DNA of 64,000 nt from a virus (taxonomy: Duplodnaviria > Caudoviricetes): positions 24,721 through 88,720 of IMG/VR virus record IMGVR_UViG_3300030372_003714. One strand, given 5' to 3'. The notes beneath the pieces are model-generated. The model was not told the origin of the DNA. It worked only from the letters and a program-made list of their open reading frames with translations, and did not search any database. How positions within the stretch are numbered: the stretch's first letter is position 1; every line of letters starts with the position of its first letter. Below, one piece after another: positions 1-56,200 of this stretch. The position numbers and the translations under genes were made by a program.

Positions 1-3000
1 ACCACAATCAGTACAATCTCCATTTGGATCTCCTGAAACTAAATTTACAGGGTTAATCAGTGCAACTCCTCCTGGACATGGATTTATTATATCAACTTCC
101 CAACATCTTTCGCCTGCTGGATCTCCATTATCCCAAGTTATAATTCCTCCAACATATCCTGCAAGAGCCGGATCATCAGAATATTCTGTAATATACGTAC
201 ATCCAGAACCTTGTAAACACACACCATCTTCACATCCAAAATTTACATTTGGATTTCCATATATACCACATGTAGCTCTTCTATCATATATTCCTTCTGG
301 GCCCATTAAACCTGTAGGGAAATCAGTAGCAAAAGAATTACTACTTGAGAAAGGTCCCATTAATGCATCAGCATTATAAATAGCGCCTGGGCAATTATCA
401 GGTAAACCATCGTTATCATTATCTTGATAAAGATTAGGACAAGTAGGATCACTTTGGAAACAAGGACAATCACAAAGACTATCACATCCATTAGCTGCTC
501 CAAATGTTAACCAATCATGGCCATATCCAAATGCGTGTAGTATTTCGTGTATACCTACTCTAATTAAAGAAAATGAATTTGCTACTACTGCATCTCCTGC
601 TTTTCTCCAGTTTTCATTTGCATCAAATAATAATAAACCTACTTCTGGAGAAGCTTTAGCAATTCCTGGATCATTGAAATTTAAATTTCCTGTAAAGCAT
701 AATCCTAATATTCCTGAAGCTCCTCCAGTATTACCACATCCACTTCCTCCTGCTGGATCTAATGCTCCAAAGTCTGAGAATCCAATTCTAAAGTCTCCTA
801 TTCCTGCTACTCCATTACTATCAGTAAAAGATGTTCCATTGTTACCAGTTATAGTGTTTGTTCCCATTGCTGGATCACCTGCAGTATATCCAGTTTCATA
901 TCCTAAATCTGTAAAGTTAACAGTTAAATTAGCTCCATATCCACAGTTTGTATTAAATACTCCTTCAAGCATTGCTTTAATTTCAGCAAACATTGTTTGC
1001 ATTTCTGCCTTAAACTGTACATGTGTAATCGTATATGTTTTATTATAAGGAGCACAAAATGGCCAAGAACTAATTCCTGTTGTATTAGCTGTACCTGGCC
1101 CTTGTTCACAAGCTAAAGCTGGACCAAAACCAGGAATACCTATTGGGAATGTAGCTCCATCGTTAATGAAACTATAGCTAAAGTCTACTGTTTGTGCTAT
1201 ACCTGGTGCTCCCTGTGTTCCTAATGCTTGTACTGCATTTACTAATGCCGCCCACCTTTGTGGTGTATTATTTATACATGTAGGAGACCAAGTCTTTCCG
1301 TATGTAACCATATTCGGAGGCATCGTTGCTGGATCATTTACTGAACACTGATTAGCTGGTCCAGAAGTTCCTCCTGTACATTCACACTCTGTTAATTTAT
1401 AACAGAAGTTTGGTGGAGGTGCACAATCTGTACAATCATTATGTGTAACTGTAATAACAGGATCTGGGTTAATCACATTAGCCGGATCACATGGACAAGG
1501 CATATTTAACCATGTTGGGAATCTTTCTCCCATAGGTCTATTACCTATATCATAAGAAGGAACTGGATTTATAAGCTCTAGTCCCTGCTCTATTGCTAAT
1601 GCATTATTAGGATCATCTAATCTTAATAATGAATTTGTTATTTGATTTCCTGCTCCTACTTTTAGCATGTATGGATTATCTTGTAACTGTTCTACTATAT
1701 TTAGCCAAAGTTTACCATCTGGTCCTACAACTAAATCATTAATCATAACATTACATCTAGTTACATCTGTCGGAGTTCCATACCATCCTGAAGCAGTAGA
1801 TGCATCAGGGAATGATTTAACATGGTCTGTATAGCCTCCTGCAGAATTTGTAAACCACATAAATGGAGCCGCGTTCGGTCCTGCAGCATCAAATGCAGCA
1901 GCATCATCTGTTTCATTGTAAAATACAAAAGCTTGTTGAGCGGCCATTTCTATAGCTAATCCTTTTAATTTTAAGATTATTATCCCAAATCCACTTTTAA
2001 TTAAGGTATTATTATAAGGATCATTTGTATCATAATATTGAGTCCCTGATAAAATTAAGTTTCTTCCATTAGGACTAAAAGCCATAGAATCTACTCTGTC
2101 AAGAAAATAATCACCTACATATGCTCCAAGTGTAGGAGATTTTTCTCGGTGTATCCCAAGAACAATGGAATTGAAAACTCCATTGTTTGCTCCTCCGTTA
2201 TAACCATTATTGAATGTCCATCCTATTGCTGCAGTCGCTGAATCTCCTGTAACAGGATTTAACCCAAAAGCAAAGGTTTCTGAAGCTACGTTATTAAGAT
2301 CATCCCCTTCAAACCTTACAGCTATAATATCATTTGTTTGATTTACTAATAATTCACCAGATCCTATTGTCTGGGTTCCAGATGCAGCTGAATTATTCCA
2401 TCTACCAGTTACGACATCTACTGCAACAAACGCTGTACCTATTCCGGCACTACTAAATTTAATACCTTTGATATGCTGATTAGCCCAATCTGCACCGTTA
2501 GACATAACAGGAACATAGTAGAAATGCCAGTAAGCGCCAGATCCTATTCCCGTAGTTGTATTTACACACATAACCTCAGATGCTGATGCTGCTAAAGTCG
2601 TATTGTCAGATGCAGCTAGTACTTCTCCTTTTCCTGAATTAAGAGTCATATCAACTATAGACCATTTTATAGGACCATTTCCAGCACTATTTTGTATTAC
2701 ATAATACTGATGCCACACTCCATCTGTTACTCCTCCTGCAGCGTTTGGAATAATTACTGCTCCTTGAGCTGGGAATGTTTTACCATCTGAACTTGTTGCT
2801 CCTTGATTTGCATTTCCCTCATGTACGGGACCTGAATCAAGATTCATTTTAGTGTGAGTTCTATCATATATCCAATGACCGTCTGTATAGAACATTAAAT
2901 CTCCTGCCGCAAAAGCGTGTCCACCTATAGTAGCTGCTCCTGTTGCAGAATGTACTGCTGCTCCTCTAAAAGTATAAGCATCTGAATTTGGTGCATTCGA

Positions 3001-6000
3001 GGAGTTAAAGTTTAACATAGTAGATTGTCCATTAAAATCTGCTACCGGTGCTCCTGTACTAAAATCTATTCCTAGTCTATCTCCATAGAACCAATTTGTA
3101 CCTGCTATTGGATTTCCTTGGCTAGTACATTGTTTCCAACATCCTATTTGTCCTCCTAATTCTACTACATCTGTTCCTATTGTAGCACCAAGTCCTCCTG
3201 ATACAGTTATTGTTGTTCCTGGATTAGTACATGATTCTAATAATGTACATTGAGGATCACATGGATTTACTAAACAATAACTACAATCTGGCATATTACC
3301 TGTTCCTACTGTTGCTGTAGCTATCGCAGTTACATCTGCATCTGGTAGCATACCAGTACAATCAGCACTAGCACTTACTGTCCAACATCCTGTATAAAGA
3401 ATACCACCTACTGTTATATCTGCTTGAACTACAGATCCTACATCAGCAGCTGTAATACCTGTTGTTACATTAACAATTTGATCTGGTACATATGAAGGAC
3501 CACAACAATGTGCTACTTTTACACATGTTTGTCCTGAAGTAGCGCAATCTGCACAATCTGCATAAGACGCAGTTATTGCTCCAGTAGGATATACTACTGT
3601 TGTAGGTCCTAAACAACCTACTAATACTTTATGACAATTATCTTGTGCTACTCCCCCTATTGTAATATCATGAGCATTAGCTGCTCCAATAAAAGGATGA
3701 AGTGTCGGAGAATTCAAATAATCAACACTAGTTATATTTCCTGTAACACAATCTTCAACTCTTAAATAATATCTACAAGAAGCACAATCTACTTGGGTAG
3801 ATGATACAGTTAGAGCTGCCTCAGTTCCTTGAGGACCGGTTGGATTAATTTGTATTTCTCTACAGAAACATTCTCCTGCTAAATGTACTACTACTCCTGC
3901 TGCAAAATAAGCATCTATTAATGGAGTTGATGTAGCTCCTACTCCATTAACTGTATATACAACATCAGTAGGATCTCCACATTTTGGTAATTTATAATAT
4001 ACTGTTGGATCTGGAGTACAAGTAGGACAATCTGAATATGGCCCAGGACTAGTATCTAATATAACTGATACTGGGCTTATACAAGTTGGAGATTTTTCTA
4101 CATACCAACAAGTACCTCCTTGAAGTCTTACATATAAACCTATATAAGGAGATAATATAGCTTGAGTACTATATTGTATAACTCCTGTATCACAATTTGT
4201 TAATTTATAGCAACAATCTTCTGTACCTGGTGCACTTAAACAATCAACACAGTCTGTATATAAAGTTACACTAGGATCTGTATTATTTGGCCACTTAGAA
4301 CATATATCATTATAACCTAAACCTGTAGGAATATTCGTCCAAGCATTTGTTGCTGTAACTGGGTTAATTAAACCTATTACAGCTGTCTGTCCAGTACCAG
4401 CATCATTTAATGTATGTAAAAATAATTCATAATTACCAATACCTACTAGCTTTGCAGATATAATATAAGTAATACTAGTAGCTATACTAAGACCTCTAAC
4501 TCTTTCTATACCATATGCATCTTGTCCTGCAACAAAACTACAAACAGTAGCTAAGTCAGATATTACTGTATGATTACCATTAGCATCATCAATGCTCATT
4601 AATTTATTTAAACCTCCAGCTCCAGTATTATCTCCTAATACATAATAATCACCGCTATTATAATCTACAGATAAATCATATCCTAAACTAATAGTTGCAT
4701 TAGTTACACTACCTGCTATTGCTATACCTCCGCTTAAAGAATTAGTATATCTAGCAAACGTCGCATTTCCTCCTACCATATCACCTGCTACAATATGTCC
4801 TGTTGCACTATAATCATAATCTAAACATTGAGGAACTGTAAAAGCATTGGTAATTAGCTCAGGATCAGATATATAACTTGGCCACGCTGATGCCCAAGAT
4901 ATATCAGTAGCGCCTGATGTATATATAATATTACCATGTTTATCAAATGTTAGATCTTTTAGATTACCTATAACACCATTCCATGTAGTAAATTCAGAAA
5001 TAGAACAAGTACCATTTAGTACATTATCAATAGAATAAATATTTCCATCTTCAGAAGTAAACCAAAAATGCTCTGTTGGAGCTGTTGCTTCACCACAAAC
5101 TGGCGTTCCTCCATTACTAACTGAATATACATCGCCAGCTACTACAGTAGTTAAATCATTAGTAATTATTCCAGGCATTTCTACTGGGCCTAAAGAATAC
5201 GTTCCTCCTGTTGGAGTTGTAGCTTCAATACAACATGGTAAAAATCCTATACATCTATCTTGAAAAACATCTAAACATGCTCTACAAGTATTATAAAAAG
5301 TATCAGGTTGTTGCCAGTCACAAGGTTGAACATGATGTGTAGTAGGAATTTCTGATGTATAACAAAAGAAACATCCTCTATGCTCTCCAGTAGCTGGTAG
5401 TTGCCAAACATCTGTATTAGGATCATTACATTTACCTGCATAGAATGCATAATCTGGATCTATACCTAATATTCTTAATGGGCTGTTCTCAAAATACCAA
5501 GCTGCATTTGCAGTTGAACATGACATAGGAAGACTTGTCCAAGGGAAAAGTCCAGGATCTGTAACTATTGAAGTAGCAAATGCTGCCCAAACTATAGCAG
5601 CACCTGATGCTACATCCCCATTATGTGTTACTGTTGAACCTAAAGCTCCTGTTGTAATCTGTACTTTATCCGTACCACCAATTCTAGAAATTGTTATAGT
5701 AGTAATATTTCCTGGAGCTGCATTTGTACATAAAGTCCAAGCCCCTGCTACTGTATCATATATAGCTACTCTATCACCAAAAGCTACATATACTAACTGA
5801 AGTGATACATCTACTCTACTATATGTGGCAACAGCAGTAGGATGTTTACCTGCTAATGCGCCTCCAAATGCAGATGATATATCAATTTGAGACGCGGCAG
5901 ACCAAGCGCTTACTTCATTAGTATCTGTTTTTATAGCACCAATACTATAAATATTAGTTTCTCCTGCTTTTAATCCTACAAATTGAAATGTATCACATAA

Positions 6001-7887
6001 TAGATCGGTAGTAGGATTTGTTTGTCCTCCACTTGCTGGGCCAGTCCACATCACATGACTTACAGCTTTAATAGATGCCCAATTAGCTAAATTAGCTCCA
6101 CCTATTGCTTGTGGATTTGTTATTGTAGAATTATCACTATTCCATTTTAAATAGCTAACACTATTACCCCCGGTTGGAGAATCCCATATATACAGATTAT
6201 CAGTATATTGATTATGTGCTAATCCTATAACTCCTGCGGCACTTAATTGCCCAATATCTGCAAGTTTATTTACTCTAGCAGTTGTAACAAGATTAGTAAC
6301 GAGCCAAAGACCTTTATCAGTATCTAAGTATACCATGTCACCCTGATTACACTTTTTAATTAAAAGATCAGGATTAGCTGAAGTTGCATATGTACATGGA
6401 GTAAATTGTGGGGCTCCATATCTATAATATGTATTATCTAATAAAGTACCTACCATACTAGCTGTAGGAGCAGTAGTTACCGGAGCGTTTACATTTTCTA
6501 TAATACAGTGTTGTATTGGATTACTTGTTGTTGTATCATTTGTACTGTATATTTCTGGATAATGTGTACTCCAAGTTGGGCTAGTAAAGGTTACTGATAA
6601 AGTCCATTCACCAGTTTTTAATGGTGTAGAAACAAAAATTCTTCCACTTTTTTGTGGATCTCTCCATATACCTGCAATAATTCTTCCGTTATGATTTGGC
6701 TCCCATATATTAATTCCTGCATTATCATTAATATCTATAGCTCCCTTATTTGTTACAGACCATACATTTAAGCTATTTATTTCATTCCAAGCAATTTGTA
6801 AAGTAGGAGAAGCAGCCCCAGAAGAATCTAAATTACCATAATAAAGATGTCCCTTAGTAGCTGTACTATCATGAGACCAAACAGCATACATATTATAATA
6901 TCTAGAATCGTCTCCTGGAGAAGCTGGCCATGGTCTTGGTCCTTTGTCTAATCCATTTGTATTTTGGTATGTTGGATTAGATAGTTGTCCTGTAGTACCA
7001 TCAAAAGAGAGAACTTCAACTTTATCTAAAAGTTGCGGAACATCATTAGTTCCGACAGTAGGTCTATATATTGTTGCTACTTTATGATTATTTACTCCAG
7101 TTGTAGATATTTCTAAAGGTGTAACATCTACTACACCATGAGGACCATTATCTTGCCAGCCAGTATAATTTGTACCTACAGCACTCACAATAGGCACACT
7201 ATAAGATTGATCAATTATAGGCCATCCAGTTGAGTTTACTGCTAGAATTTGCCATGTAAGCCATCCATTATCAGTCCAAGTACCAGAACTAGAAGTAGCT
7301 GACTTTGCAATTATCCAAAATCCACTATCATATGCTGGATTAGGAGCTTTATATGTTCTTCTGCATATTGTTGCCATACGTCCCCCAACACCAGTTTGAG
7401 AACCCGATAATGTACCTAGTGTTCCTCCTGGAGGAGTTTGTCCAGATAATGTATAATTACTAAATGTTCCTAATCCACCATCACCTGACATATCAACTAA
7501 TCCTACTCGTATACCACTGGTTAAAGCATTTGAGAATACCCAATAATATCTACCTTTATCAATTTTTGCTACGTCAGCTAACGTATCTGGAACTTTAACT
7601 ATATTTACAGATTGTGGTAAACTTTTAATTCCTCCAGTAGTACTGGAGCCATTCATTATATTACCAGTTCTATTAAAAATTTGATTACCGTCAGAAAAAA
7701 ACATCAAGTCTCCATCAGCATAAGACTGTGCTCCATGAGTTACTGCACCATCTGCAGTTATTGTTGCACTAGACCAATGAGCAGTACGATCAGGAACACT
7801 TTCATTTATTGGAGGAGTGGCACCATTTATTGTATTAGTTAGTATTTGAGTACCTGTAAACCACTTTTGATAATCTTTTGCTGACAT
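1..7887 (-). CDS. Giant (>2,629 aa, runs off left edge) modular virion/fibre-like protein: two beta-propellers, Cys-rich repeats, matrixin-like M10 metallopeptidase
   Basis: ATG at 7887 (MSAKDYQKWFTG...), 19 nt downstream of the 7906 gene. Every segment I translated by hand stays open in one frame down to base 1. Its absence from the ORF track fits an ORF with no stop in the window. HEILHAFGYGH at 517-549. Confidence 0.9.
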   Translation of the reverse strand, partial: MSAKDYQKWFTGTQILTNTINGATPPINESVPDRTAHWSSATITADGAVTHGAQSYADGDLMFFSDGNQIFNRTGNIMNGSSTTGGIKSLPQSVNIVKVPDTLADVAKIDKGRYYWVFSNALTSGIRVGLVDMSGDGGLGTFSNYTLSGQTPPGGTLGTLSGSQTGVGGRMATICRRTYKAPNPAYDSGFWIIAKSATSSSGTWTDNGWLTWQILAVNSTGWPIIDQSYSVPIVSAVGTNYTGWQDNGPHGVVDVTPLEISTTGVNNHKVATIYRPTVGTNDVPQLLDKVEVLSFDGTTGQLSNPTYQNTNGLDKGPRPWPASPGDDSRYYNMYAVWSHDSTATKGHLYYGNLDSSGAASPTLQIAWNEINSLNVWSVTNKGAIDINDNAGINIWEPNHNGRIIAGIWRDPQKSGRIFVSTPLKTGEWTLSVTFTSPTWSTHYPEIYSTNDTTTSNPIQHCIIENVNAPVTTAPTASMVGTLLDNTYYRYGAPQFTPCTYATSANPDLLIKKCNQGDMVYLDTDKGLWLVTNLVTTARVNKLADIGQLSAAGVIGLAHNQYTDNLYIWDSPTGGNSVSYLKWNSDNSTITNPQAIGGANLANWASIKAVSHVMWTGPASGGQTNPTTDLLCDTFQFVGLKAGETNIYSIGAIKTDTNEVSAWSAASQIDISSAFGGALAGKHPTAVATYSRVDVSLQLVYVAFGDRVAIYDTVAGAWTLCTNAAPGNITTITISRIGGTDKVQITTGALGSTVTHNGDVASGAAIVWAAFATSIVTDPGLFPWTSLPMSCSTANAAWYFENSPLRILGIDPDYAFYAGKCNDPNTDVWQLPATGEHRGCFFCYTSEIPTTHHVQPCDWQQPDTFYNTCRACLDVFQDRCIGFLPCCIEATTPTGGTYSLGPVEMPGIITNDLTTVVAGDVYSVSNGGTPVCGEATAPTEHFWFTSEDGNIYSIDNVLNGTCSISEFTTWNGVIGNLKDLTFDKHGNIIYTSGATDISWASAWPSYISDPELITNAFTVPQCLDYDYSATGHIVAGDMVGGNATFARYTNSLSGGIAIAGSVTNATISLGYDLSVDYNSGDYYVLGDNTGAGGLNKLMSIDDANGNHTVISDLATVCSFVAGQDAYGIERVRGLSIATSITYIISAKLVGIGNYELFLHTLNDAGTGQTAVIGLINPVTATNAWTNIPTGLGYNDICSKWPNNTDPSVTLYTDCVDCLSAPGTEDCCYKLTNCDTGVIQYSTQAILSPYIGLYVRLQGGTCWYVEKSPTCISPVSVILDTSPGPYSDCPTCTPDPTVYYKLPKCGDPTDVVYTVNGVGATSTPLIDAYFAAGVVVHLAGECFCREIQINPTGPQGTEAALTVSSTQVDCASCRYYLRVEDCVTGNITSVDYLNSPTLHPFIGAANAHDITIGGVAQDNCHKVLVGCLGPTTVVYPTGAITASYADCADCATSGQTCVKVAHCCGPSYVPDQIVNVTTGITAADVGSVVQADITVGGILYTGCWTVSASADCTGMLPDADVTAIATATVGTGNMPDCSYCLVNPCDPQCTLLESCTNPGTTITVSGGLGATIGTDVVELGGQIGCWKQCTSQGNPIAGTNWFYGDRLGIDFSTGAPVADFNGQSTMLNFNSSNAPNSDAYTFRGAAVHSATGAATIGGHAFAAGDLMFYTDGHWIYDRTHTKMNLDSGPVHEGNANQGATSSDGKTFPAQGAVIIPNAAGGVTDGVWHQYYVIQNSAGNGPIKWSIVDMTLNSGKGEVLAASDNTTLAASASEVMCVNTTTGIGSGAYWHFYYVPVMSNGADWANQHIKGIKFSSAGIGTAFVAVDVVTGRWNNSAASGTQTIGSGELLVNQTNDIIAVRFEGDDLNNVASETFAFGLNPVTGDSATAAIGWTFNNGYNGGANNGVFNSIVLGIHREKSPTLGAYVGDYFLDRVDSMAFSPNGRNLILSGTQYYDTNDPYNNTLIKSGFGIIILKLKGLAIEMAAQQAFVFYNETDDAAAFDAAGPNAAPFMWFTNSAGGYTDHVKSFPDASTASGWYGTPTDVTRCNVMINDLVVGPDGKLWLNIVEQLQDNPYMLKVGAGNQITNSLLRLDDPNNALAIEQGLELINPVPSYDIGNRPMGERFPTWLNMPCPCDPANVINPDPVITVTHNDCTDCAPPPNFCYKLTECECTGGTSGPANQCSVNDPATMPPNMVTYGKTWSPTCINNTPQRWAALVNAVQALGTQGAPGIAQTVDFSYSFINDGATFPIGIPGFGPALACEQGPGTANTTGISSWPFCAPYNKTYTITHVQFKAEMQTMFAEIKAMLEGVFNTNCGYGANLTVNFTDLGYETGYTAGDPAMGTNTITGNNGTSFTDSNGVAGIGDFRIGFSDFGALDPAGGSGCGNTGGASGILGLCFTGNLNFNDPGIAKASPEVGLLLFDANENWRKAGDAVVANSFSLIRVGIHEILHAFGYGHDWLTFGAANGCDSLCDCPCFQSDPTCPNLYQDNDNDGLPDNCPGAIYNADALMGPFSSSNSFATDFPTGLMGPEGIYDRRATCGIYGNPNVNFGCEDGVCLQGSGCTYITEYSDDPALAGYVGGIITWDNGDPAGERCWEVDIINPCPGGVALINPVNLVSGDPNGDCTDCG

Positions 7888-7905: not shown

Positions 7906-8586
7906 TTATACTTCCTGTTTAGGATAACACTTTAATTCAACCCAGTGACCACTTTCATGGAATCCTGTATTCATAGGATTAGGTTCTGTAATACTAATAA
8001 AATATTTACCTCTTTTAGTTTGATTTGCTCCTACTCCTCCGCCCATAAATCTAACTATATCTCCCATACCATAAACTACTGATGCGTCCCAATCAACACT
8101 TCCTGCAGCTTGCCAAGCTTCTTTTACATGCCCACAAACACTCCATGTTGCTGGACCAATTCCATTAAGTCCTGTCATACAAGGAAAAGCGAAACCAGTA
8201 TTATCAAAACATGTGCCTGCTGGTTGTACCAAAGGGGCTACTCCTTGCCATCTTAAATATAAATATTCTCCTGGATTTGCGTTTGGTTTCATATAAGCTT
8301 TTACTACTTTTCCGTATGGGATAGTTCCATAAGATTGTGTCCAAACAATACTACCATCTAATTCCCACTCACCTTTACAATTACAAGGTAATGGTGAATA
8401 ACATTCTATAATTTCAATATAAGCTCCTAAAAGTTTTAAATTGCATAGTTCATCTTTACACTCTTTTCCAAAGCGTTGTTTATCAACTAGTTCTGCTGCT
8501 TTTGTAGCAAAGCAACATTTTAACTTATTTAATCTATAAGTTATATCATATTCTGTTATTACTGTAGGCGTCGCTGTTTTACTCAT
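7906..8586 (-). CDS. Cys-rich structural protein with C-terminal CBM5/12-like (chitin-binding type 3) motif
   Basis: WDASVVYGMGDIVRF...YFISI...HWVEL resembles the W-x5-Y-x2-GD-x-V CBM5/12 pattern; lies in the structural operon. Confidence 0.5.
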   Translation of the reverse strand: MSKTATPTVITEYDITYRLNKLKCCFATKAAELVDKQRFGKECKDELCNLKLLGAYIEIIECYSPLPCNCKGEWELDGSIVWTQSYGTIPYGKVVKAYMKPNANPGEYLYLRWQGVAPLVQPAGTCFDNTGFAFPCMTGLNGIGPATWSVCGHVKEAWQAAGSVDWDASVVYGMGDIVRFMGGGVGANQTKRGKYFISITEPNPMNTGFHESGHWVELKCYPKQEV

Positions 8587-9428
8587 TACAATTTCATTAT
8601 AAAGGCTAATACATAGTATTTATTAGTAATATCAACATTTGCTCCATTTGGTGCAGAAAGTCCTGATGATGTTCCATCTCCTGTTTGTCCACTTATATTT
8701 GTTGTTGCTTGATGATTGTGTATACCTGCCCAAGTAGTCCAATATTGTCCTACTGAATTACCACCACCTTTATCAGCCATACCTCCTGTAACACCGTTTG
8801 CTGCATCAATCTGGTGTCTGTGATTTCCATTATCTGCAATAGTTGTAATTGCTGTTAAAGTATTTCCGCTATGTGTATGTGCTGGGATTTGAGAAGGCTC
8901 TAGATTTACTGTAAATGATCCTCCACTAGCTCCTAAATTATTAAAGGGACTATAAGCAATATTATCTCCAAAAGCTCCTACAAAATGACCTCTTAAATCT
9001 GGAGTCCCTTGAGTTCCATCACAAAAAGCCCACCCTTGTGGAATAGAGGCAACATTACCTTTCCACATGCATATTACTCCTGCAGGAATTGCTCCTCCAG
9101 GTCCTAATACAGTAGAAATAATATTACCTGCATTATATGTATTTGGGCATGGCGCAGCCGTACCAGTAGTAACTATAACATCTCCAGTAGTATTACCATC
9201 TAAACCATCAGATATATATACATCTGTTAAGGAACATCCGTCTGCTCCATCTGCTCCTGGTAATCCATTTGTACCATTTACACCTGGAGGTCCTTGGGGA
9301 CCTTGAGGTCCTACGGGTCCTGTATCTCCTACAGGAATGTCACAACTATTTGCTTCTGCACATGTGTTACAATCACACGAGCAATGTTGAGGTGTTACAC
9401 ACCCATTTAAACAACTTTCACATGCCAT
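8586..9428 (-). CDS. Fibre protein with collagen-like repeat and phage tail-collar domain
   Basis: G-X-Y run GDTGPVGPQGPQGPPGVNGTNGLPGADGADG; collar motif IPAGVICMWKG...IPQGWAFCDG...TPDLRGHF; IPAHTH and HNH microcystin-dependent-type C-terminus. Confidence 0.8.
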   Translation of the reverse strand: MACESCLNGCVTPQHCSCDCNTCAEANSCDIPVGDTGPVGPQGPQGPPGVNGTNGLPGADGADGCSLTDVYISDGLDGNTTGDVIVTTGTAAPCPNTYNAGNIISTVLGPGGAIPAGVICMWKGNVASIPQGWAFCDGTQGTPDLRGHFVGAFGDNIAYSPFNNLGASGGSFTVNLEPSQIPAHTHSGNTLTAITTIADNGNHRHQIDAANGVTGGMADKGGGNSVGQYWTTWAGIHNHQATTNISGQTGDGTSSGLSAPNGANVDITNKYYVLAFIMKL

Positions 9429-13042: not shown

Positions 13043-14494
13043 TTAGCTGTTTGGAGCTGCCTTAGTACAAATCAATTCACCACAAGCCATAGGATTTTTA
13101 ATCATCACACCACACTCAGTTAACATGTGTACTGAGTAACCATCAAGATTATCAGAACGCATAGTGTTAACAGACTTAGCTGTATTTCCAAATGGATCTA
13201 CAGAACCAGCAGTATGCCACATCATATCCTTAGAGTCTTTCTTATGTACTGCTTGGATGTTTGATTCTCCACCAGCCATACCAAAGTCAAGGAATGTGAA
13301 TCTGTAAGACTCTAATGGTCTTCCAGTATCAGCATGTAACTGTCTGTTGATAACTGTGTTGTCATATAATGGTAAGTGCTTAAGAGTAATCTTAGTACCA
13401 TTTAATCCTAGGTAAGTTTTGAATTGTCCACCTAAAGACAAGTTTTGCCCGCTACCAGTAATGAATGTTGAATCAACAAGAGTCCAGTTTGAAGCTGCTG
13501 TTTTCATAGCTTTGTCGAATTCTGCGAATCCGTACTCACCTGTAAACGCAACAAACTCTCTTGAAGACTCAGGCATCACATTATAAGATAGATCAATTAA
13601 GAAATCTCTGATGATTCCTTCTGATAAATCTGTATAGTAACGTCTGTTAGCAGGAGCAATTTGCTCTCTAATTCCTGCTCCTTCGTATACTGGAAGACCG
13701 TTGTTACCTAACATATCTGTAATACCATTAGCATTAGCAGAGAATGTTGAGTACCAGTATGATCTTTCAATTTCTCTATACCACTGAGCCATTGCTTCCC
13801 ACTCAGCGTATCTTGTCCACACTGTAGTTTTCTTTCCTGGGTTAGCAGGGTCAGCTAGTTGAATAACAAGAGCATCAGTTGCTGCTGATCTTGTTACTGT
13901 GTAAGATTTACGTAGAGTTGATAAATGATTTCTCATTTTAAATGGAGCACTGAAAGTCGTGTTACCACCAGTTGAGAATTCAGGAACTGTAGTATACTCT
14001 TTCGAGAACTGTGATCCTGCATCAATCAATAGTGGGTCCATGAATTTCGTTGGGTCTGGACTCGTTAATTTTAACGTGTAGATCCAATCTGATCCATCAA
14101 AATATGGATCTTCCATTACTCTTACTCTGTAATCTCTGTCATCCGCAACCAATACTTCTTGGTTAGCGAACCATTTTTCTCCGAACTTAACTCGGAATGT
14201 TGTACGGTTAAGCCCTGGTTGAGCTCCTCCGTCACCTAAGTTTCCAGTCACTGGAACTGCCTTTTCATCATCTCCTTGTAAGTGCCAGTCGTACTCTCTG
14301 TTTCCGATCTCAGAAGATCTTCCCATACCGCTAGTTAAATATTGGATTGGGTTAGATCCCTGCATTCCGAAGATACGAGTTACTAAAGTACTCATAACTT
14401 CCGGCTCAGTCAAATATGCTGACGAAAGGTGATTTTGTTGGGTCAAGCCCGAGTGCCACTTAGTTTTATAAAGTTGCAATCCGTTTATAGCCAT
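13043..14494 (-). CDS. Major capsid protein (crAss-like, HK97 fold)
   Basis: 483 aa; YDWHLQG, GAGIREQI, FTGEYG, ITLKHLPLYD motifs; biased codon usage; scaffold-MCP order. Confidence 0.92.
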   Translation of the reverse strand: MAINGLQLYKTKWHSGLTQQNHLSSAYLTEPEVMSTLVTRIFGMQGSNPIQYLTSGMGRSSEIGNREYDWHLQGDDEKAVPVTGNLGDGGAQPGLNRTTFRVKFGEKWFANQEVLVADDRDYRVRVMEDPYFDGSDWIYTLKLTSPDPTKFMDPLLIDAGSQFSKEYTTVPEFSTGGNTTFSAPFKMRNHLSTLRKSYTVTRSAATDALVIQLADPANPGKKTTVWTRYAEWEAMAQWYREIERSYWYSTFSANANGITDMLGNNGLPVYEGAGIREQIAPANRRYYTDLSEGIIRDFLIDLSYNVMPESSREFVAFTGEYGFAEFDKAMKTAASNWTLVDSTFITGSGQNLSLGGQFKTYLGLNGTKITLKHLPLYDNTVINRQLHADTGRPLESYRFTFLDFGMAGGESNIQAVHKKDSKDMMWHTAGSVDPFGNTAKSVNTMRSDNLDGYSVHMLTECGVMIKNPMACGELICTKAAPNS

Positions 14495-15822: not shown

Positions 15823-16872
15823 TTATTCATATCTATAAATCTCATTTTTCTTTACAAAGTTTTCAAAACCATAATTTACATCATTCCACTTAGAGGTCAT
15901 ATAGCCTTTTTTGTGTTTATATGGAGTTGAATAATCTTTTTTGTATGTACCTCTATCCATATTCCACAGTACATACATTTTAGTTTCGTTGTTCATTTTC
16001 TTATACCAAGTTGACCATCCTGCTTTTTTATCTTCAGCAGATAATGATTTCCAGAATATATCAAAATTAGTTGGGCCCATATTATATGCAGCAAATGTTC
16101 TAGCTTTTCTTTCTTCTGTTGTTGTAGCAGATTTTACATTACTTCTATCTTCATATATATAATCCATATAACGTCTTTGAGCTAATGCTTGAGCAGCTGG
16201 ATCTGTTATCTTAGCTGTCTCTGGAATCCATCCTTTTTCTTTTGCCCATTTAAATGTGCTTGGTAAAAACTGTGCTACACCCATTGCTCCTGCATCTGAA
16301 ACTACAGAATTCTTTCCACCAGATTCTTTCCATATTTGAGCTTGGAATTCTTCTTCAGTAAAATATGGATTAGTATAGTTCTCTAACTGTCGGTTTACTA
16401 GACTTTGATTTATTGCACTATAAGTCTTATTACCCCAAGCACCATCAACAGTAATATTTCTACCTTCTGATACTGCTAGGTTTTGTTGATCTGTAATATA
16501 TTCAGTATCATCTTTTTTAGATCTATAATGATCTATATCTGCCCATCCATATTTATTAACTTTAAAATTTGATTTTTTTAATTCTTCTGGAATAACTGGA
16601 CCTATACCACTGAAGTATGGATCTTCTTGTGTAGCCTCTGTAACAGGTATTTGTTGTTCTATTAAACCAACATTTGCTCGTAGTTCTCTTGGATCAACAG
16701 TAGGTACAGGATCTTTAGTACCATATTCTGCTTTAATTCTTTTTCTCCATTCAGGATTAGCCCCAACAAAACCTGATATTTTTGGCATAGATGGAACCTC
16801 CTTTTTAGGAGAACTTTCAAGGTTTCCTCCAAATCTTGCTTTTCTATATTCTGAAAATAACTTACTGTGCAT
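15823..16872 (-). CDS. Lytic transglycosylase (SLT) with putative peptidoglycan-binding motif
   Basis: QIWKESGG (catalytic Glu), AGAMGVAQFLPSTF, FAAYNMGP; upstream ITVDGAWGNKTYSAI resembles a PG-binding repeat. Confidence 0.85.
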   Translation of the reverse strand: MHSKLFSEYRKARFGGNLESSPKKEVPSMPKISGFVGANPEWRKRIKAEYGTKDPVPTVDPRELRANVGLIEQQIPVTEATQEDPYFSGIGPVIPEELKKSNFKVNKYGWADIDHYRSKKDDTEYITDQQNLAVSEGRNITVDGAWGNKTYSAINQSLVNRQLENYTNPYFTEEEFQAQIWKESGGKNSVVSDAGAMGVAQFLPSTFKWAKEKGWIPETAKITDPAAQALAQRRYMDYIYEDRSNVKSATTTEERKARTFAAYNMGPTNFDIFWKSLSAEDKKAGWSTWYKKMNNETKMYVLWNMDRGTYKKDYSTPYKHKKGYMTSKWNDVNYGFENFVKKNEIYRYE

Positions 16873-19354
16873 TCGGTTTCTTTTTAGCTGCTGTTCTCTT
16901 TATAGCTTCTTCTGCTTTATTGGCCCTCTTCTTTTCATTTAGCTCAGCTTTTTTCAATCCTAATTCACCTTGCATTTTTTCTCTTTGTAGTGCCATATCT
17001 GCATTACTCTTGGCTTCAGCTACTCCTGCTTCAGCTTCTTTATGATCTACATAACCATCATTATTTTCATCAGCGTCTATCATTTTTGCCTCAGCATTAA
17101 TCATAGCAACTTTGATTTTAGTTTCATTATCTTGTAGATTACGAGCATCTTCTCTAGCCTCTTTCTCTTGCTCCATCTGCATTTGCATTTGCTGTTGTTG
17201 TTGAGCAGCTTGTTGTTCTGCTTGTTGAGCTTGAGCTTGCTTTTTCTCCATTTCTGATTGAGCTGTTTCTAACATTTTTCTAACCTTAGTCATAGACTCA
17301 GATTGTAAAATAGTAGCCACATCTGTAAAGCTTACTACTCCTGCTTGTAATGCTGCTTGAGCTAAAGACTTCAATGATTCTAATGCTCTATCATCTTTAG
17401 AAGAATTTGAAACAAATACTCCATAACTAGAATTAGTAAAGTCTTCTGCATCTATATTTAAAAAAGTTCTCATCATATCATCTCCTAGATATTGAATCTT
17501 TTTTCCTGTTCTATAAGACATTTTAGCTACATCTAATAATGCAGTTAATACTCTTTTCTTACATTCATTATGAGAATAGAACCAGAATTCAGTAATATGT
17601 GAAGACTGTACTACAGCTCTTTCAGTGTTACCTACTAATTCTGATGTTTGTACTTGACCTTGTCTTTGTCTACTAACTCCTGATAATTCACCAAGTTCAG
17701 TTTTAATTGCATCTAGTAATTGTACATGAGTATTAATATAATTACCCATAGATAAATCTATACTTTGGAATTGATTAAATGGAGCTGCATCTCTAGATCT
17801 ATTTCCTTCTTCTCTAGAATTAATAAACATTACTCCCATAGATTCTAAGTAATACATCCATTTAGATACATCCCATCCTTCAGACGCAGGTATTTGAGAA
17901 ATATCCATTAATGCTACTTTACCTTTTGATTTAGCTATAGCTAATTCTGTTCTATAGTAAATAATATTATATAGATATTGGAAAGGCTTCATTCTATCAA
18001 TTAATGAAATAGATTCTGAATTTCTTTCATTATAGATATAACCAACATATCCTGATTTTACATCACTAGGATTAGACATATCTCTACGTTGGTTTTTCTT
18101 AGGCTTAACATTACAATAAATATCTTCTCCAATTTTAGTACCTTCCCAATACTCACTTATCCAATACCACTTCAGTTCTACGCCATCAAAGAAATAAGAT
18201 CTTCCTTTCTTTTCAGCATAATCCGGCACTTCAAATATTTCATCTACAACATCTTCTTGCGCCTGTCCTTGAGCATCAAAATAAGAAACAATTCCAATTT
18301 TTCTCATAGACTTCCATTCTACTTGTAGAACTCTAATCATTCCATTTCTTCGATACTGTCTAATTTGTCCAGGATCAAAAACTCCACTACCTACTGTATC
18401 TAATCTTTCATAGTTAACTATATTAAACTCGCTATATGGATAATTTAAACCATTACTTTCCATATTATCATTTCTTCCATCTGGTCCTCTTTCGAGTTTA
18501 TCAATCTCAGAAGGTTCTAAATCTTGATAAAATTCGTCAATGACTGTAGATAAAGTTAACCATCTCTCTTCTATTACTGCTTGTGAGTCTTCTATCCACG
18601 GAGAATCTGGATCTAAAATTACTCTTACGTCTAATGGATTTACTAATCTAACTGTAGGATTTCCTGATATATCTCCTACCCAATAAATTTCTTCACCAGC
18701 AATTAATGCATCTTTAAATCCTTGATTAAACTTAAGCTCTAAATCATCCTCTCTCGTTAAAAACTCTAATATACTTTGAGCAGTTATTTCTTTTATATCT
18801 CTATATTCATAGTTAATATATTTTTCAATTTGAGCTGGAGTTTTTGGTTGATAAGTTGCCGCGGCTTCAGGATCTGTTTGTTGTAATTGTTGAAGTTCTT
18901 GTTGTTGAGCTGCCTCGTCTTCTGGGCTAACAACCACAGAATATAGATACTGCATCATCATCTCTTTCTTCATCTCTTCTAATTTTGAAATAGCATCGGG
19001 ATCATGAGATACTACTTTAAAATTAAATGGACGTTTTATTTCTTCACCAATTAATAATTGAAGTTTTGGAGAGATAATATCATAATGCTGCATCTGTGCA
19101 GGGAATTCTCCTTCATTAAATCCAAAAGGATTTAGTACATATTGAAAATCTTGTTGATCTAGTTTACCATTAAACAAATCATAATTAATTTGTTTTTTAA
19201 ATCTAGAAGATCTTCCATTATAATTTATATCTCCATACGTTATTTTTTCAAGCTCATCAATACATGTACGAGCCCACTTCTTGCCTTTCTTATTTCGAGG
19301 TAATTTCTGTCTAGGCAGATCCCCCAAAATATATGATCCCATGTTTTCTTCCAT
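16862..19354 (-). CDS. Portal protein (crAss-like)
   Basis: 830 aa; follows TerL; LSGVSRQRQGQ...VGNTERAVVQSSHITE motif; Q/E-rich coiled-coil C-terminus. Confidence 0.9.
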   Translation of the reverse strand: MEENMGSYILGDLPRQKLPRNKKGKKWARTCIDELEKITYGDINYNGRSSRFKKQINYDLFNGKLDQQDFQYVLNPFGFNEGEFPAQMQHYDIISPKLQLLIGEEIKRPFNFKVVSHDPDAISKLEEMKKEMMMQYLYSVVVSPEDEAAQQQELQQLQQTDPEAAATYQPKTPAQIEKYINYEYRDIKEITAQSILEFLTREDDLELKFNQGFKDALIAGEEIYWVGDISGNPTVRLVNPLDVRVILDPDSPWIEDSQAVIEERWLTLSTVIDEFYQDLEPSEIDKLERGPDGRNDNMESNGLNYPYSEFNIVNYERLDTVGSGVFDPGQIRQYRRNGMIRVLQVEWKSMRKIGIVSYFDAQGQAQEDVVDEIFEVPDYAEKKGRSYFFDGVELKWYWISEYWEGTKIGEDIYCNVKPKKNQRRDMSNPSDVKSGYVGYIYNERNSESISLIDRMKPFQYLYNIIYYRTELAIAKSKGKVALMDISQIPASEGWDVSKWMYYLESMGVMFINSREEGNRSRDAAPFNQFQSIDLSMGNYINTHVQLLDAIKTELGELSGVSRQRQGQVQTSELVGNTERAVVQSSHITEFWFYSHNECKKRVLTALLDVAKMSYRTGKKIQYLGDDMMRTFLNIDAEDFTNSSYGVFVSNSSKDDRALESLKSLAQAALQAGVVSFTDVATILQSESMTKVRKMLETAQSEMEKKQAQAQQAEQQAAQQQQQMQMQMEQEKEAREDARNLQDNETKIKVAMINAEAKMIDADENNDGYVDHKEAEAGVAEAKSNADMALQREKMQGELGLKKAELNEKKRANKAEEAIKRTAAKKKPNAQ

Positions 19355-50254: not shown

Positions 50255-53200
50255 TTATTTTAAATCAAAGAACTTAATCTTATCTCTAGGATCTGTCCCA
50301 AGTTCTTTGAATAGTAAGACATTACGTATGTATTTATTAATCTTAGCGTCGCCTTTCTCATATCGTCCTGTTTTTCTCTTATATCTTTCTACATCTCCGC
50401 CTAATATTATAGACCATGAGTCATCCCACGCCTGGCTTAATAATTTACTATACGCTTCTATTGTAGTTAAGTTCGCAGCAGGTGTTCTTAAGATCTCATA
50501 GAATGATGACCCTAATGGATTATAGAATGCAAGCTCTGACTGAATTCTCTTAATTGAGTAAAGAGCATACCAGTCTACTGCTGACCTATCTTCCGGTTCG
50601 TCGTCCATTCCAAAGAACGCTAGTCCTAAGATGGTTAAGAAATAAAAACCTGCTACTTCACCTAAACCACGTTTTATATTTGCTTGCTGCCATGACTCAA
50701 GTTCTCTATAACGTTCTTTCATAGTAAAGAACTGTAATCTTTTGAAGTCTCTTCCTAGCTGGCCTATAAATTTAACAGCTGTTACATAGTTTCCTTCCAT
50801 ATAGGATTCTAGTCTCTCGTTGTAATTAGGCCCTTTTATATCAGATTCTTGATCATAAAATAATTTTTCTGCCCCTTCAAATCTACGACGGTATCCAGGT
50901 CTTAACCACTTACGGAATTGTAATGCCCATCTACCTGCAGCATATTGTTGAATAGCGGCTTTATCTTTCTCATTATAAATACCGTGTAACCTTTGGTATA
51001 ATGCTTGTATTTTTTCTGAGAATAAGATTCTATCTTGTTCACTAAATTGTGATGCTACTTCAGGGTCTAGTACTAATTTACCTTTTTCTCCTATACTGTA
51101 TGCATCCCATAAGTTAATAGTTCCTTTGCTAGTTTTAAATTTCTTATTAAACATCATAGCCATGGCAAGCTGACTTTGTATCATATGCTCACCCGCACTC
51201 ATCATAAAGTATAAAGCTCCTTGATTCATTCTTAATCCTAATTGCTTAGGGTTAAGTTTTCTACCATATTCATCAAACTCTTGAAGTACATTAAATAATT
51301 CATTCATCTGACCTAACTTAGATTTAGGGGCCCTAGCTAGAGTATCTGCTATTAGTCCAGCACCTCCTAGTTGATCTGTTGAAGTATATGCTAAATATTT
51401 TGTTTTCGCTTTAGTCCAATCTTTCATGTTAAAGAACTGCCCAGCCCATGCTTCAGTAAAGTTCATTATAGAACCAAATCCTATATTGGCTACAGCTGCT
51501 TTATCATTCATTGCTAATACTCTTAAACTACCAAGTTGTAGTAATGCATCACTTATCTGATCTGCATTTGTAGTCTTACCAAATATTGTAATAGCACCTC
51601 CCATTTTCTTACGCTTACCATATACAACCATATTAAAATAGTCTTCTAGTCTTTGGTATGCTTTAGAGTCTATACCAGCAAAATCAATATCTTCTCCTGT
51701 AATCGCATCTGGTACTGGCATTCCACTCTTACGCTTTTTAACACGTCTAGTTCTAACTAATTCTTTTGCTGCTTCTATCTCTGGTAGGATTTGTTGCATC
51801 TCATTAAAGTTATTAGCCATTGTGTAATACATTTTTAATCCACTAGATAAATCATAACTTACATCTGCTGGACTTAATTGTCCTTCTGCATTTCCAATTC
51901 TAGATGAATAATGTACAGGTATATAACTCATAGGATCTCCTGCGGCATCAACATACTCACCCCACATAATATTATCCTGTGCTTTACCAAATACTTCTAG
52001 CATCTTTTCACGGATAGCATTAATACTACCTTTAAATACACCATTATGTTCTGGATTCATAAACCATCTCTCTGCTTGAGTCGCTCTTAAACCTGGTAAT
52101 GCATTTCCACGTTGATATGCTTTAGGTAAGAAGTTTTGAGCCTCATTATAATGTTTCTTATAGAAGTCATAATATTGTTTCCTAGGATCAGAAGCTTCCA
52201 TGTTTTGTACCTCTTTGTACTTTTCACTTAAATAAGATTTAGGAGAATTCTGTAACCATTTATTATATTTACCTTTAGTATTATCTTCTTTATAAAATTC
52301 AGCCCATTGTACTTCACTCAATGCGTAACCTGCATCAAGTTTTTCATTCATAAACTTATCTCTAGCTACTTTAAATTCAGGCATATATTCTTGAATTATA
52401 TGTCCTGTTAGATTTCCTGCTTTGTCTGCTTCTAGCATAAAACCAAATAACTCTCGATATTTCCATATAGAAACGCCAAGTCCTGATTGGAAGTCCTCTA
52501 GCTTTTTAGTTAAATCCAATAAGGCTCCTTCACCGTGTACTAAATCATATTCTGCTTTGTTTACTTTACCTCTCTGTATAGTAACCATCTTATCTACCAT
52601 AGCTAATGATGGATCACTTGAGTCTCCTAAAGCATCCATCCATCTAGCAATCCACGTTATATCACTTCCAGCTAGCTGTAATTCCTCCATAAACTTATCA
52701 GGATTATTTTTATACTCCGGATTAGAAGTTAGTGCTGCAAATTTATCAGCAATAAGAGGCCTTAATAATGATTTAATATCCTCTAATACAAGATTTCTCT
52801 TTGCTATAGCTGGTTGTACATACTTCTCTAATAAATTTTCATAACCAGATTCAGCTAATAGAGGGGCCATTAATGTTACCTCTTCAAGTATACCGTACGC
52901 ATTTACAAAATCTTTTATTTGAAGTAGTATTCTAGGATTTAATGCGTCATCTTTCTTTAATTGATTAAGTCTTCTATGCGCATTATTAAGATCTGCTACA
53001 GCACGTTTTGTAAATAATACTAATCCTTCTTTCTCGTTAAGCTCTTCCATCTCATTAAAGATTTCTTTAAGCCTATTAGCATAATCACTATTACCCTTAT
53101 CCTTAGAATATAAAGCAATCTTTCTTTCTAATATTCCTTTAGCTTTTTTAAATACTTTTAATACATTATTGTATTCATCCTGCTTCATCATTGTATCATG

Positions 53201-56200
53201 ATTAGGCGCTATAAACTCAATCATCTTTTTGATTGTTTTATTAGGAACAGCTTCTAGATCCTTAAGCTTGTTTATATTTGGAGTAGTTTCAGTATTTACA
53301 GCTGCATTAGTAAAGAAGATTTCACCATTATTATCAATAGAAACATCTGCTTCTATAGGAACAATGTTAAGTCCATCTACTGTTATACCTTTTTCCTCTA
53401 TTATATATTTGTATAGCGAAAGCTGTATACGATATTTATTTAATAGTGTATTTTGGATTCCTGCTAAAGGCCCTTTAAAATCAGGTAACTTTTTAGTAAT
53501 TGAACCAAATTTACCACGCATTTTAGTTTTAAAGTCATGGATTATTTTCTTATTATTAGAAGTAACCTCTATAATATCTGCTGTACCTGCAATTAGATCT
53601 TGTTTATCTCCTACTTGAACCTCAGAATAAAGACGGCTTCCAGTAGCTTCCTTACTACGAACCCAATCTCTTATAGATGGAATGATTTCTCTAAAGGCAG
53701 TTCTGTGCTGTTCAGGCAAACCTTCTAATATAACTTCCATGTCTGATTTATTTACAATTCCTTCTGCTATAGTATGAATACCAGTACCCATATCATCTCT
53801 TAAGAAATCCCATAGCTTCTGTACTTTGTCCGCCGTGTTAAATGGACTACCTTCTCTTTTATTAATGTTAGCTACCTTCTCTGCCATTCTTTGTTGATCA
53901 AATGGATCTTGGAATATCTCCATTACTCTACTAACACGGTTCATTTTTACACCATCTAGTTCATAGTATGGTGATTGTTCTGTTGGAGATATAATATTTT
54001 CACTTTCATCAATAAGCATGTCCATCTTATCTTTTTCAGTGAATTGTCTTAAGTATGGTACTTTACTACTAGCTGCTTGCGCTCCTTTTGTAATTAAGTC
54101 TCCAACATTTATTTTTTCTCCTTTAGTATTTCTAAATTCAAACTTAGCTTTATTTAAAGCATAATATTTATTTACACCTATATTATCTATACTTAGATTT
54201 CCAGGGTTTATACCGTTAATAATTGCATCAGCTGCGGGACCAAGTATTTCAGTTAATTGCTCATTTAAGGCATTTACCTGACCTTTCCTTCCGCTAAAGA
54301 ATCTTTTAATAGAATCCCATACTTTTCTTAATGTACCAAGAAGCCCATCTCCATAGTCTTCAGTTACCGCTTCTCCTTCATATTTACCTACAATATATTT
54401 AGCTAATATTTTACCTGCTGCCTCTTTCTGGAAGTCTAACTCTTGATTATAAACATGCTTGTAGTCTTCTTTTACTGTCTGGAATGTTTTAGTTTGTCTT
54501 ACCAGTTCTAAAAGCCTTTGCATTGGTGCATTATCCATCATTTCTACATAGAAGTGACCTGCTTCTTCAGATAATGTATATTTATCTCTGTTATTATCTA
54601 CAAGAACTGCACGGTTTAACATGTCTGCCATACCTATTGCATCGATTCCTAATTTAGTCTTAAGGTTATCATATTTCTGTACAGGTATACCAAAATGTTG
54701 CATTAACCACTGCTCAATTCTTTCATCTAATGTATTTAATGTAGCTTCTTTTACCATAGGAGCCAGCTGCATTAGATCATTTAGATTAGTTTGTTGGTTT
54801 TCTGTCATCTCATCTAATGAGATTTCAGTTTTAGTAGGTACTTGAGGATTGATTACCTGATTTATAGGATTCATACTCTGCACCACGGCATTATCTGCCT
54901 GCATCTCAACTAGTCTAAATCTTTCTCCTAATGGTTGTATTTCTTCATAAATAGCACCACGTTCAGTTTTGTATCTAAATTTAAATAGTCTGAATTTATC
55001 ATTCATATATGATTTAAAGTAATTTACATACCCTCGACTATTATCTGCTTTTTCTGTGATTAATTGTGGATTACTATCCTGGTGTAAGAAATATTCATTT
55101 TTAGTAAGATTAAAATCTTTTCTTGTTTGCTCTGAAGTTTCTACACTCTTATTATCTACTGTCATAAGAAGACCCTGTTCTGTAAACATGTTTCTAATGA
55201 TCTGTTCCGAAGCTCCTGCAAAGTAATTTTCATAAGTCATACTACGTTCCTCATTACGGAAGAACTCTGTAAGTCCTGAACTTTTCCAGTATGACATAGG
55301 CACTAAATCAACAAATGAATTAGGCCCCAGCATAAATCCTGATGTAAGTACTGAGTACTTAGCTAGATTCTGAGCTAGTGTTCTAACTTCTTTTCTTGGG
55401 TCAACTAATAATTCTGCCCATCTATTTGTTATAGCATTTATCTGATCTACTCCAAGTTTTGTAGTATTATTAAATGCTATTAATTGTAAGTAATTATCTA
55501 CATTTACATTTGATTCATGTCCAAATAACATGCCTAGGAATATATCATTTTGTAAACCATATTTAGTTTTGATATTTTCCATCTGTCTAATAAGAGATTC
55601 TTCTTTTGTAAATAAAAGTTTTCTTACAGCTTCGTTATTTTCATATACCATAGATGAAAAAGGAGAACTCTTTTTTGTAAGGGCCCAATATAATCCCATA
55701 GAATTAATCACATCTGTAAGTTCCGGAGATAAGATATTATTTTTTTGTCCTGTTGCTTCTGCTATTTGATGCTTAAGTTCTGAGTATCCTGGTTTATTAT
55801 AAGGAACAAACTCAGATACAAAGTCAACAGCTGCTTGTAAACCAAATTTCTGATAAGCCTCTATTCTTTCTGTAGAATTTTCCATGCTTAATGATGACCC
55901 CGGTCCATTTAAGTACTCTACTTTACCTTGATAGTTTTCAATAAAACTTAATCTAGATAAATTCTTTAATGTCTCTGGAGATACAACTGTGTTAAATAGA
56001 GCCAAGTCTCTTCCTACTTTAGCATAATTTAAATAGTCGGATAAAATTTGTATTTGATTTCTTGCTACTCCTGGGTCCATCATATTTGCTTGCAATGATT
56101 CTGATAGATAATTAGCTGTAGGAGTAAATTCTATTTCTCCTTCTCTCATATTATCAAACTCAATTCCTAGGTTATAACTATTTGCAATTTCTTTTGCTAT

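Follow-up and report, generated by a model that had tools for sequence, protein, structure and literature searches.

Among bacterial viruses, a metzincin protease has been described in Listeria prophages, where Mtz is a phage-borne secreted enzyme with an extended zinc motif and a Met-turn that acts on the cell envelope and sensitises cells to lysis (PMC8235301). Matrix metalloproteinases (MMPs) are also known from viruses of eukaryotes, namely the insect-infecting granulovirus, nudivirus, ascovirus, and entomopoxvirus, in which they are stand-alone enzymes. In Clostridium haemolyticum, the flagellinolysin FliA(H) is a gluzincin related to M9 collagenases, with Glu as the third ligand (PMC5595980). 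Here we analyzed a stretch of 64,000 nucleotides (hereafter the window), which corresponds to bases 24721–88720 of the 88,720-bp viral record IMGVR_UViG_3300030372_003714. Its minus strand encodes a domain (window 253–1254) within a giant protein of 3,837 amino acids (aa), and this domain is almost certainly a true but divergent M10 (matrixin-type) metzincin, both in fold and in family identity.

Family and fold of the domain

An earlier note, made from the sequence alone, had pointed to an MMP-like metzincin catalytic domain inside a giant late protein. Direct reading and translation recovered all the motifs it quoted, at the same positions and in the same order, on the minus strand and in a single open frame. 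This frame (7887..1 within the window) continues beyond the window edge and gives the 3,837-aa protein. Over all six reading frames of the window, there is a single occurrence of the zinc-binding pattern HExxHxxGxxH, compared with 0.0026 expected from base composition, and the segment that matches it, HEILHAFGYGH, carries the only HExxH of the giant protein. The features of metzincin clan MA(M) are present: HExxHxxGxxH on an active-site helix, a Met-turn, and a fold with a five-stranded sheet and helix A forming the upper subdomain, active-site helix B, and a lower subdomain that ends in helix C.

An AlphaFold2 model of the domain was built on a 22-row alignment. It had a predicted template modelling score (pTM) of 0.82 and a mean predicted local distance difference test (pLDDT) of 72.6, with values of 80–96 in the core blocks and low values at residues 262–296 and in the last 16 residues. 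Foldseek searches against PDB ranked karilysin first, followed by serralysin PrtC, MMP-13, MMP-12, and MMP-11. After re-ranking with VIA-align, all 50 of the 50 matches listed were MMPs or karilysin, and the alignment with MMP catalytic domains covered model range 1..347. The absence of a metzincin fold from such a model had been named in the earlier note as grounds for rejecting the idea, and the fold is present.

In the model, the M10/MMP-fold catalytic domain comprises domain residues 13–346 (approximately residues 2211–2544 of the giant protein, within a region of about 2200–2565 that we assign to the domain). Beta-strand I (QTVDFSYSF, 1168–1194, minus strand as for all elements below; DSSP strand 33–41) corresponds to the first strand of the MMP sheet; its TVDFSYSF part lies at window 1191..1168, and bacterial M10 relatives keep FTYSF here. 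Helix A (HVQFKAEMQTMFAEIKAMLEGVF, 958–1023; DSSP helix 90–111) aligns to the FKxEIxxAFxEWKxLFE helix of the same relatives. Strand IV (ILGLCF, 694–711; strand 196–199 in the model) is equivalent to LAHAY/F of MMPs, and strand V (GLLLFDANENW, 607–639) is equivalent to GGDxHFDxxExW according to both the alignments and the model. Active-site helix B (517–567) ends in HEILHAFGYGH (549..517), which would provide the zinc ligands H248, H252, and H258 and the general base E249 (H2447, H2451, H2457, and E2448 in the giant protein). A Cys-rich insert of about 50 aa (367–516) separates the third His from the Met-turn (ALMGP, 352–366), in which Met311 (360..358) is found and which is followed by Phe as in IMAPF of MT-MMPs. 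The C-terminal helix C (GIYDRRATCGIYG, 259–300; DSSP helix 331–344) is the counterpart of the DDxxGIQxLYG helix of MMPs.

At the sequence level, the best and almost the sole Pfam family of the window copy is Peptidase_M10 (PF00413, E-value 0.0007–0.0013), with a match to profile positions 84–124 of 159, that is, strand V and the active-site helix. Each of the eight members of the viral clade matched this family with an E-value of 0.1 or better (best 1.1e-8). A HMMER (phmmer) search of the domain against 1.84 billion representative proteins identified six close relatives (49–75% identity), four of which are 3,639–3,839 aa long and two of which are shorter (1,569 and 1,799 aa). More remote matches were a single giant protein (P0008), followed by bacterial proteins of 220–530 aa (E-values 2e-8 to 6e-4). 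All of the ten bacterial proteins scanned scored above the M10 threshold (35–81 bits), and the phage and bacterial sequences align over the full domain, starting with the helix that precedes strand I and finishing with the terminal IYG. Comparison of a profile of 5 phage sequences with one of 13 bacterial sequences by hhalign gave a probability of 100% (E-value 1.2e-39, 233 columns). When the joint phage and bacterial profile was searched against PDB, only MMPs and karilysin were detected (about 1e-14).

In the joint-profile alignment, GGDTHFDSAEPW of MT1-MMP falls on the FDANEDW strand and its IMAPF on the Met-turn. The strand-by-strand parallels with MMPs proposed in the earlier note agree with such profile alignments, which pair GLLLFDANENW with GGDTHFDSAEPW and ALMGPF with IMAPF. 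A broader profile, which was swamped by long proteins, had no match in PDB, and a phmmer search of the domain against PDB sequences returned chance matches only. The Foldseek result, the profile–profile link, the Met-turn, and the complete HExxHxxGxxH motif together support a matrixin/MMP-like metzincin catalytic domain.

Relatives, departures from matrixins, and conservation

The closest cellular relatives are uncharacterised bacterial M10 domains (P0009–P0022), which share 27–47% identity with the phage domain over its whole length, from an N-terminal PW..AV helix to IYG. Both groups have GHD after the zinc motif and an FP.GL segment. Similar to the phage copy, the bacterial domains are located inside an extracellular structural polymer and have no propeptide. 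Four of the ten bacterial proteins scanned are flagellins whose hypervariable region holds the M10 domain, and one other contains CarboxypepD_reg. Several flagellin relatives retain the structural-zinc His residues (LAHGF, GDxHFD), unlike the phage domain.

M10-bearing flagellins include P0009, P0010, P0012, P0020, and a protein encoded at L008:2001-3587, in which the M10 domain is flanked by Flagellin_N and Flagellin_C. The last one comes from a Candidatus Hydrogenedentota metagenome-assembled genome, and was the single flagellin, from Hydrogenedentota, found by a narrow-profile scan of genome contigs. We considered whether these proteins are the published flagellinolysins and dropped this idea, as the latter are described as M9-like gluzincins (PMC5595980); the NCBIfam flagellinolysin model (NF033876) had no match to the phage domain. 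The M10 flagellins may represent a second, undescribed class of proteolytic flagellin. Capture of the phage domain from a Bacteroidota host was also considered, and nothing that we found supports it.

The more distant giant protein, P0008 (3,532 aa; L007:10001-20599 on an 80.9-kb metagenome contig), contains an M10 domain (HEIGHSLGLGHD) that is intact and lacks the Cys-rich insert; dockerin-like repeats are also present. Its gene lies downstream of a baseplate wedge gene (phrog_6) in the same co-oriented gene block, and the contig is unrelated to the phage studied here. With P0008, this M10 subtype is seen independently in another giant protein, which by its gene context is predicted to belong to the tail region. 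A scan of IMG/VR viral contigs recovered no relatives of its M10 domain.

In BFVD, the sole strong match to the phage domain was a fragment, 100% identical in sequence, of a viral UniProt entry that carries no name (A0A516LFR9_2), indicating that the protein, from this or a near-identical genome, has already been deposited without a functional description. The next matches were granulovirus MMPs (E-value 1e-4) and small phage "matrixin" proteins, such as that of Maribacter phage Colly_1 (E-value > 1); no other viral structures in BFVD resembled the model. PHROGs contains no family for the domain. A tblastn search of 50,697 GenBank phage records gave no match for the domain, nor for either end of the giant protein (its first 829 aa and its last 601 aa).

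The phage domain differs from classical matrixins in several respects. Catalytic domains of MMPs (MEROPS M10A; e.g., MT1-MMP, 1bqq, and MMP-12, 1jk3) and of karilysin (2xs4, 4in9) have approximately 160 residues, whereas the phage domain has about 335. This roughly twofold size is due to four insertions: one follows strand I, one separates strands II and III, one lies in the S-loop, and the fourth comes after the third His, ahead of the Met-turn. This fourth one is the clade-specific Cys-rich insert, which accounts for a distance of 53 residues from the third His to the Met-turn (H258 to M311) as compared with 7–8 in MMPs and in the closest bacterial relatives. Its CxCPCYQ..C core is invariant in the viral clade and its second half is variable; the insert is missing from the bacterial relatives and P0008. 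A DNDNDGLPDNC segment in the variable half (391..423, minus strand) is reminiscent of the calcium loops of dockerins or thrombospondin type-3 repeats; P0004 shares it, and the remaining relatives have other sequence at this place.

Matrixins have Ser after the third zinc His (HExxHxxGxxHS), whereas the phage domain has Asp259 (GHD), as in adamalysins; this Asp is invariant across the viral clade and common in the bacterial relatives. In MMPs, a second, structural zinc is held by His/Asp of the S-loop together with His residues of strands IV and V (LAHAF, GDxHFD); the two strand His residues are replaced in the phage by Leu197 (ILGLCF) and Leu221 (GLLLFD). No cysteine switch (PRC[GA] or RC[GAS]x[PN]D) occurs anywhere in the 3,837-aa protein. 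Karilysin likewise lacks the PRCGxPD switch, and its absence does not exclude membership in M10. In addition, MMPs are secreted zymogens, whereas the phage domain is embedded in a very long chain. Within the domain, 11 Cys residues are shared by every member of the viral clade.

Considering Asp259, Leu197/Leu221, the lack of a switch, and the 53-residue spacing, we classify the domain as a divergent M10-type metzincin and not as a matrixin sensu stricto (M10A). The domain does not fit the serralysins (M10B) either, which have Pro after the third His, an SxMxY sequence with Tyr as fifth ligand, and a C-terminal RTX beta-roll: it reads GHD and ALMGPF, and no RTX repeats were seen in the Pfam scan.

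We then considered conservation. In seven IMG/VR relatives (42–80% identity), whose contigs come from environmental metagenomes and whose hosts are probably Bacteroidota, H248, E249, H252, G255, H258, D259, DALMG, PTGL, and the helix-C motif are invariant. The zinc motif is invariant in all 22 aligned sequences, and the four catalytic residues and the Met are also invariant in bacterial relatives, down to about 27% identity. Pairwise ratios of nonsynonymous to synonymous substitution rates (dN/dS) over the domain are 0.28–0.38, and residues 2200–2700 rank among the better conserved stretches of the giant protein. These ratios indicate that the protease domain is under purifying selection. The invariant catalytic residues, the dN/dS values, and the regional conservation argue for a working enzyme, and the domain is probably an active zinc endopeptidase.

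The giant protein and its genomic setting

The viral record has terminal repeats of 92 bp. A 483-aa protein (window 13043–14494) matches the crAss-type major head protein PHROG (1e-122) and is 42–44% identical to capsid proteins of many crAss-like phages (Bacteroides, Flavobacterium, Cellulophaga), and an 830-aa protein (window 16862–19354) matches the portal PHROG (5e-171). On the basis of these capsid and portal matches, the genome is assigned to a crAss-like (Crassvirales) phage. Full-text literature searches yielded no description of a metzincin among the tail proteins of Crassvirales.

The part of the giant open reading frame (ORF) inside the window (1..7887, minus strand) encodes 2,629 aa and runs past window position 1. 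The frame extends 3,624 nt (1,208 codons) beyond the window edge, to genome position 21097. It is preceded by a 226-aa gene (7906–8586), and the second gene upstream encodes a 280-aa protein (8586–9428) with matches to tail-fibre, tail-collar, and collagen-like PHROGs. Genes downstream of the giant gene match virion structural PHROGs. Thus, with a tail-fibre-like gene on one side and virion structural genes on the other, the giant gene is a late gene within the structural block.

The giant protein contains 159 cysteines (4.1%), which are concentrated in repeated modules. These Cys-rich modules of approximately 70 aa (CYxLxxC ... CWxV ... DCxxC) occur on both sides of the protease domain (window 1–4270, minus strand, and L006). 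There are 17 CxxC pairs, which might serve in metal binding or in disulfides. The C-terminal region of about 500 aa (L006:98-1600, minus strand, outside the window) is well conserved, with 60–64% identity to relatives. It has a IYVFLDMTSTFGG stretch that resembles the metal ion-dependent adhesion site (MIDAS) motif of VWA domains, and the nearest named clusters in the ESM Atlas are VWA families (0.83–0.85), which is a weak lead.

Three other genes of the late region were noticed. Flanked by the genes for the portal and the capsid, window 15823–16872 (minus strand) encodes a 349-aa protein with matches to endolysin and lytic tail protein PHROGs. This protein may act as a cell-wall hydrolase associated with the virion and would then be a second enzyme in the particle. 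The giant gene is closely followed, amid the structural genes, by a 381-aa gene (L009:17868-19013, minus strand) with an HNH-like N-terminus and matches to DNA repair exonuclease PHROGs (phrog_704, 2e-60). A second giant ORF, of 4,536 aa (window 50255–63865, minus strand), occupies the distal end of the late block, a position at which crAss-like phages have genes for virion RNA polymerase proteins.

Possible place and mode of action

Disulfide bonds have been documented in the tail of crAss001 (PMC10172136). Together with the Cys-rich modules, the genomic context of P0008, and the flagellar display of the bacterial relatives, this favours an exposed appendage with a protease acting in trans on extracellular protein. 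We consider it likely that the whole combination holds, namely an M10 fold with a working, trans-acting protease. That the giant protein forms an external appendage of the virion is somewhat likely.

Several observations weigh against this reading. Placement of the giant protein in the tail is based on gene order only, and no Pfam family was recognised in its other approximately 3,300 residues. No usable AlphaFold2 model was obtained for the last 531 aa (pLDDT 36.8), where Pfam gave no match either. The insert beside the active site, which may or may not leave the cleft open, is modelled with low confidence. Neither a propeptide nor an inhibitor was found, which raises the question of how a protease assembled in the cytoplasm stays harmless. 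With regard to family identity, the search with the Peptidase_M10 hidden Markov model that the earlier note had proposed as a check gave matches for the whole viral clade, and the window copy alone scored 19–20 bits, below the gathering threshold of 24. A profile of the five closest phage sequences had no match in PDB, so the sequence link to MMPs is transitive, via bacterial intermediates.

A possible role, which we put forward tentatively and rate somewhat below an even chance, is that the enzyme acts outside the cell on protein material of a Bacteroidota host, such as a surface layer, anchored adhesins, or matrix proteins. Proteolysis would clear a path to the receptor or free progeny from debris, in the way that polysaccharide depolymerases act on capsules. 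Relative to MMPs, the clade has lost the two structural-zinc His residues and has gained conserved cysteines and the CxCPCYQ insert beside the active-site helix. These cysteines and the insert probably assume the stabilising role of the structural zinc, and they may also tie activity to oxidising, extracellular conditions.

A more specific and rather speculative version, which we regard as unlikely to hold in full, is that an active MMP-type protease on a giant fibre is a protein-layer depolymerase with the CxCPCYQ insert as a built-in redox latch. In the reducing cytoplasm, the thiols of the insert would block the catalytic zinc or prevent the lower subdomain from forming. Disulfide formation after lysis would then open the site, and the latch would stand in for the structural zinc of animal MMPs as well as for their propeptide cysteine switch.

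Alternatively, the domain might cut the 3,837-aa precursor itself, or neighbouring fibre proteins, during or after assembly, with no host substrate involved. Its position in the middle of a very long modular chain, with Cys-rich repeat modules on both sides that could be linkers, is compatible with such self-processing, as is the absence of a propeptide. However, the known phage maturation proteases are HK97/herpesvirus-type and ClpP-type serine proteases, and have other folds. M10 enzymes mostly function in trans as extracellular endopeptidases, and the closest relatives are on flagellar filaments or have surface-type domains, which also fits action in trans. No conserved cleavage-site motif was seen, although none was sought. 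Self-processing is an improbable main function in our opinion.

Slightly less probable is a soluble effector that is released at lysis and is not part of the particle, where the protease would remodel the host envelope or matrix and thereby aid lysis and spread, like Listeria Mtz. A phage-borne secreted metzincin that sensitises cells to lysis provides the precedent (PMC8235301), and the giant protein shows no signal peptide or evidence of presence in the virion. On the other hand, its gene lies inside the structural block, with a tail-fibre gene on one side and virion structural genes on the other, and not beside lysis genes, its size and repeat architecture are fibre-like, and the P0008 counterpart is encoded downstream of a baseplate gene.

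It is more doubtful still that the giant protein is internal cargo ejected through the tail, with the protease acting in the periplasm (e.g., on lipoproteins or porins) and opening a path for the DNA. Although the cargo that crAss-like phages package and eject includes several very large proteins encoded late in the same block (PMC10172136), ejection needs unfolding, and a chain with 159 cysteines would be poorly suited to it if these are disulfide- or metal-bonded. The giant gene also lies ahead of the putative ring, muzzle, and cargo region and of the 4,536-aa ORF, and sits near fibre genes. Least probable of all is a catalytically silent module kept for binding or scaffolding, since invariance of the four catalytic residues, the Met-turn, and the motif Gly in all viral and bacterial relatives examined would be unexpected for a dead enzyme, even though the structural-zinc site is lost, the 50-aa insert between the zinc motif and the Met-turn could distort the cleft, and dN/dS is only moderate (0.3–0.4).

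Virion-borne phage enzymes mostly cut polysaccharides or peptidoglycan, and protein-layer depolymerases are, to our knowledge, a virion enzyme class hardly known in phages. An external trans-acting protease on the giant protein would mean that a virus particle may cut proteins rather than sugars on the way to its host. If this is true, protein surface layers would be a barrier that is actively removed by crAss-like phages of Bacteroidota, and a compact MMP fold of a bacterial virus would work with neither propeptide nor structural zinc. The presence of the same M10 subtype in flagellins suggests a metzincin lineage specialised for display on extracellular polymers.

Comparison with the described systems places the phage domain as follows. 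Mtz is small, has a signal peptide, is paired with a TIMP-like lipoprotein, and is encoded beside lysis genes (PMC8235301), whereas the phage domain is part of a giant protein; we found no sequence link between the two. FliA(H) is an active metalloprotease shown in many copies on an extracellular filament and offers a functional analogy to a phage fibre protease (PMC5595980). It has another fold and belongs to another clan, and is no kin of the phage domain, whose third ligand is predicted to be His. The phage domain adds a new variant, found in an unusual context, to a well-known enzyme family and is not a new kind of system.

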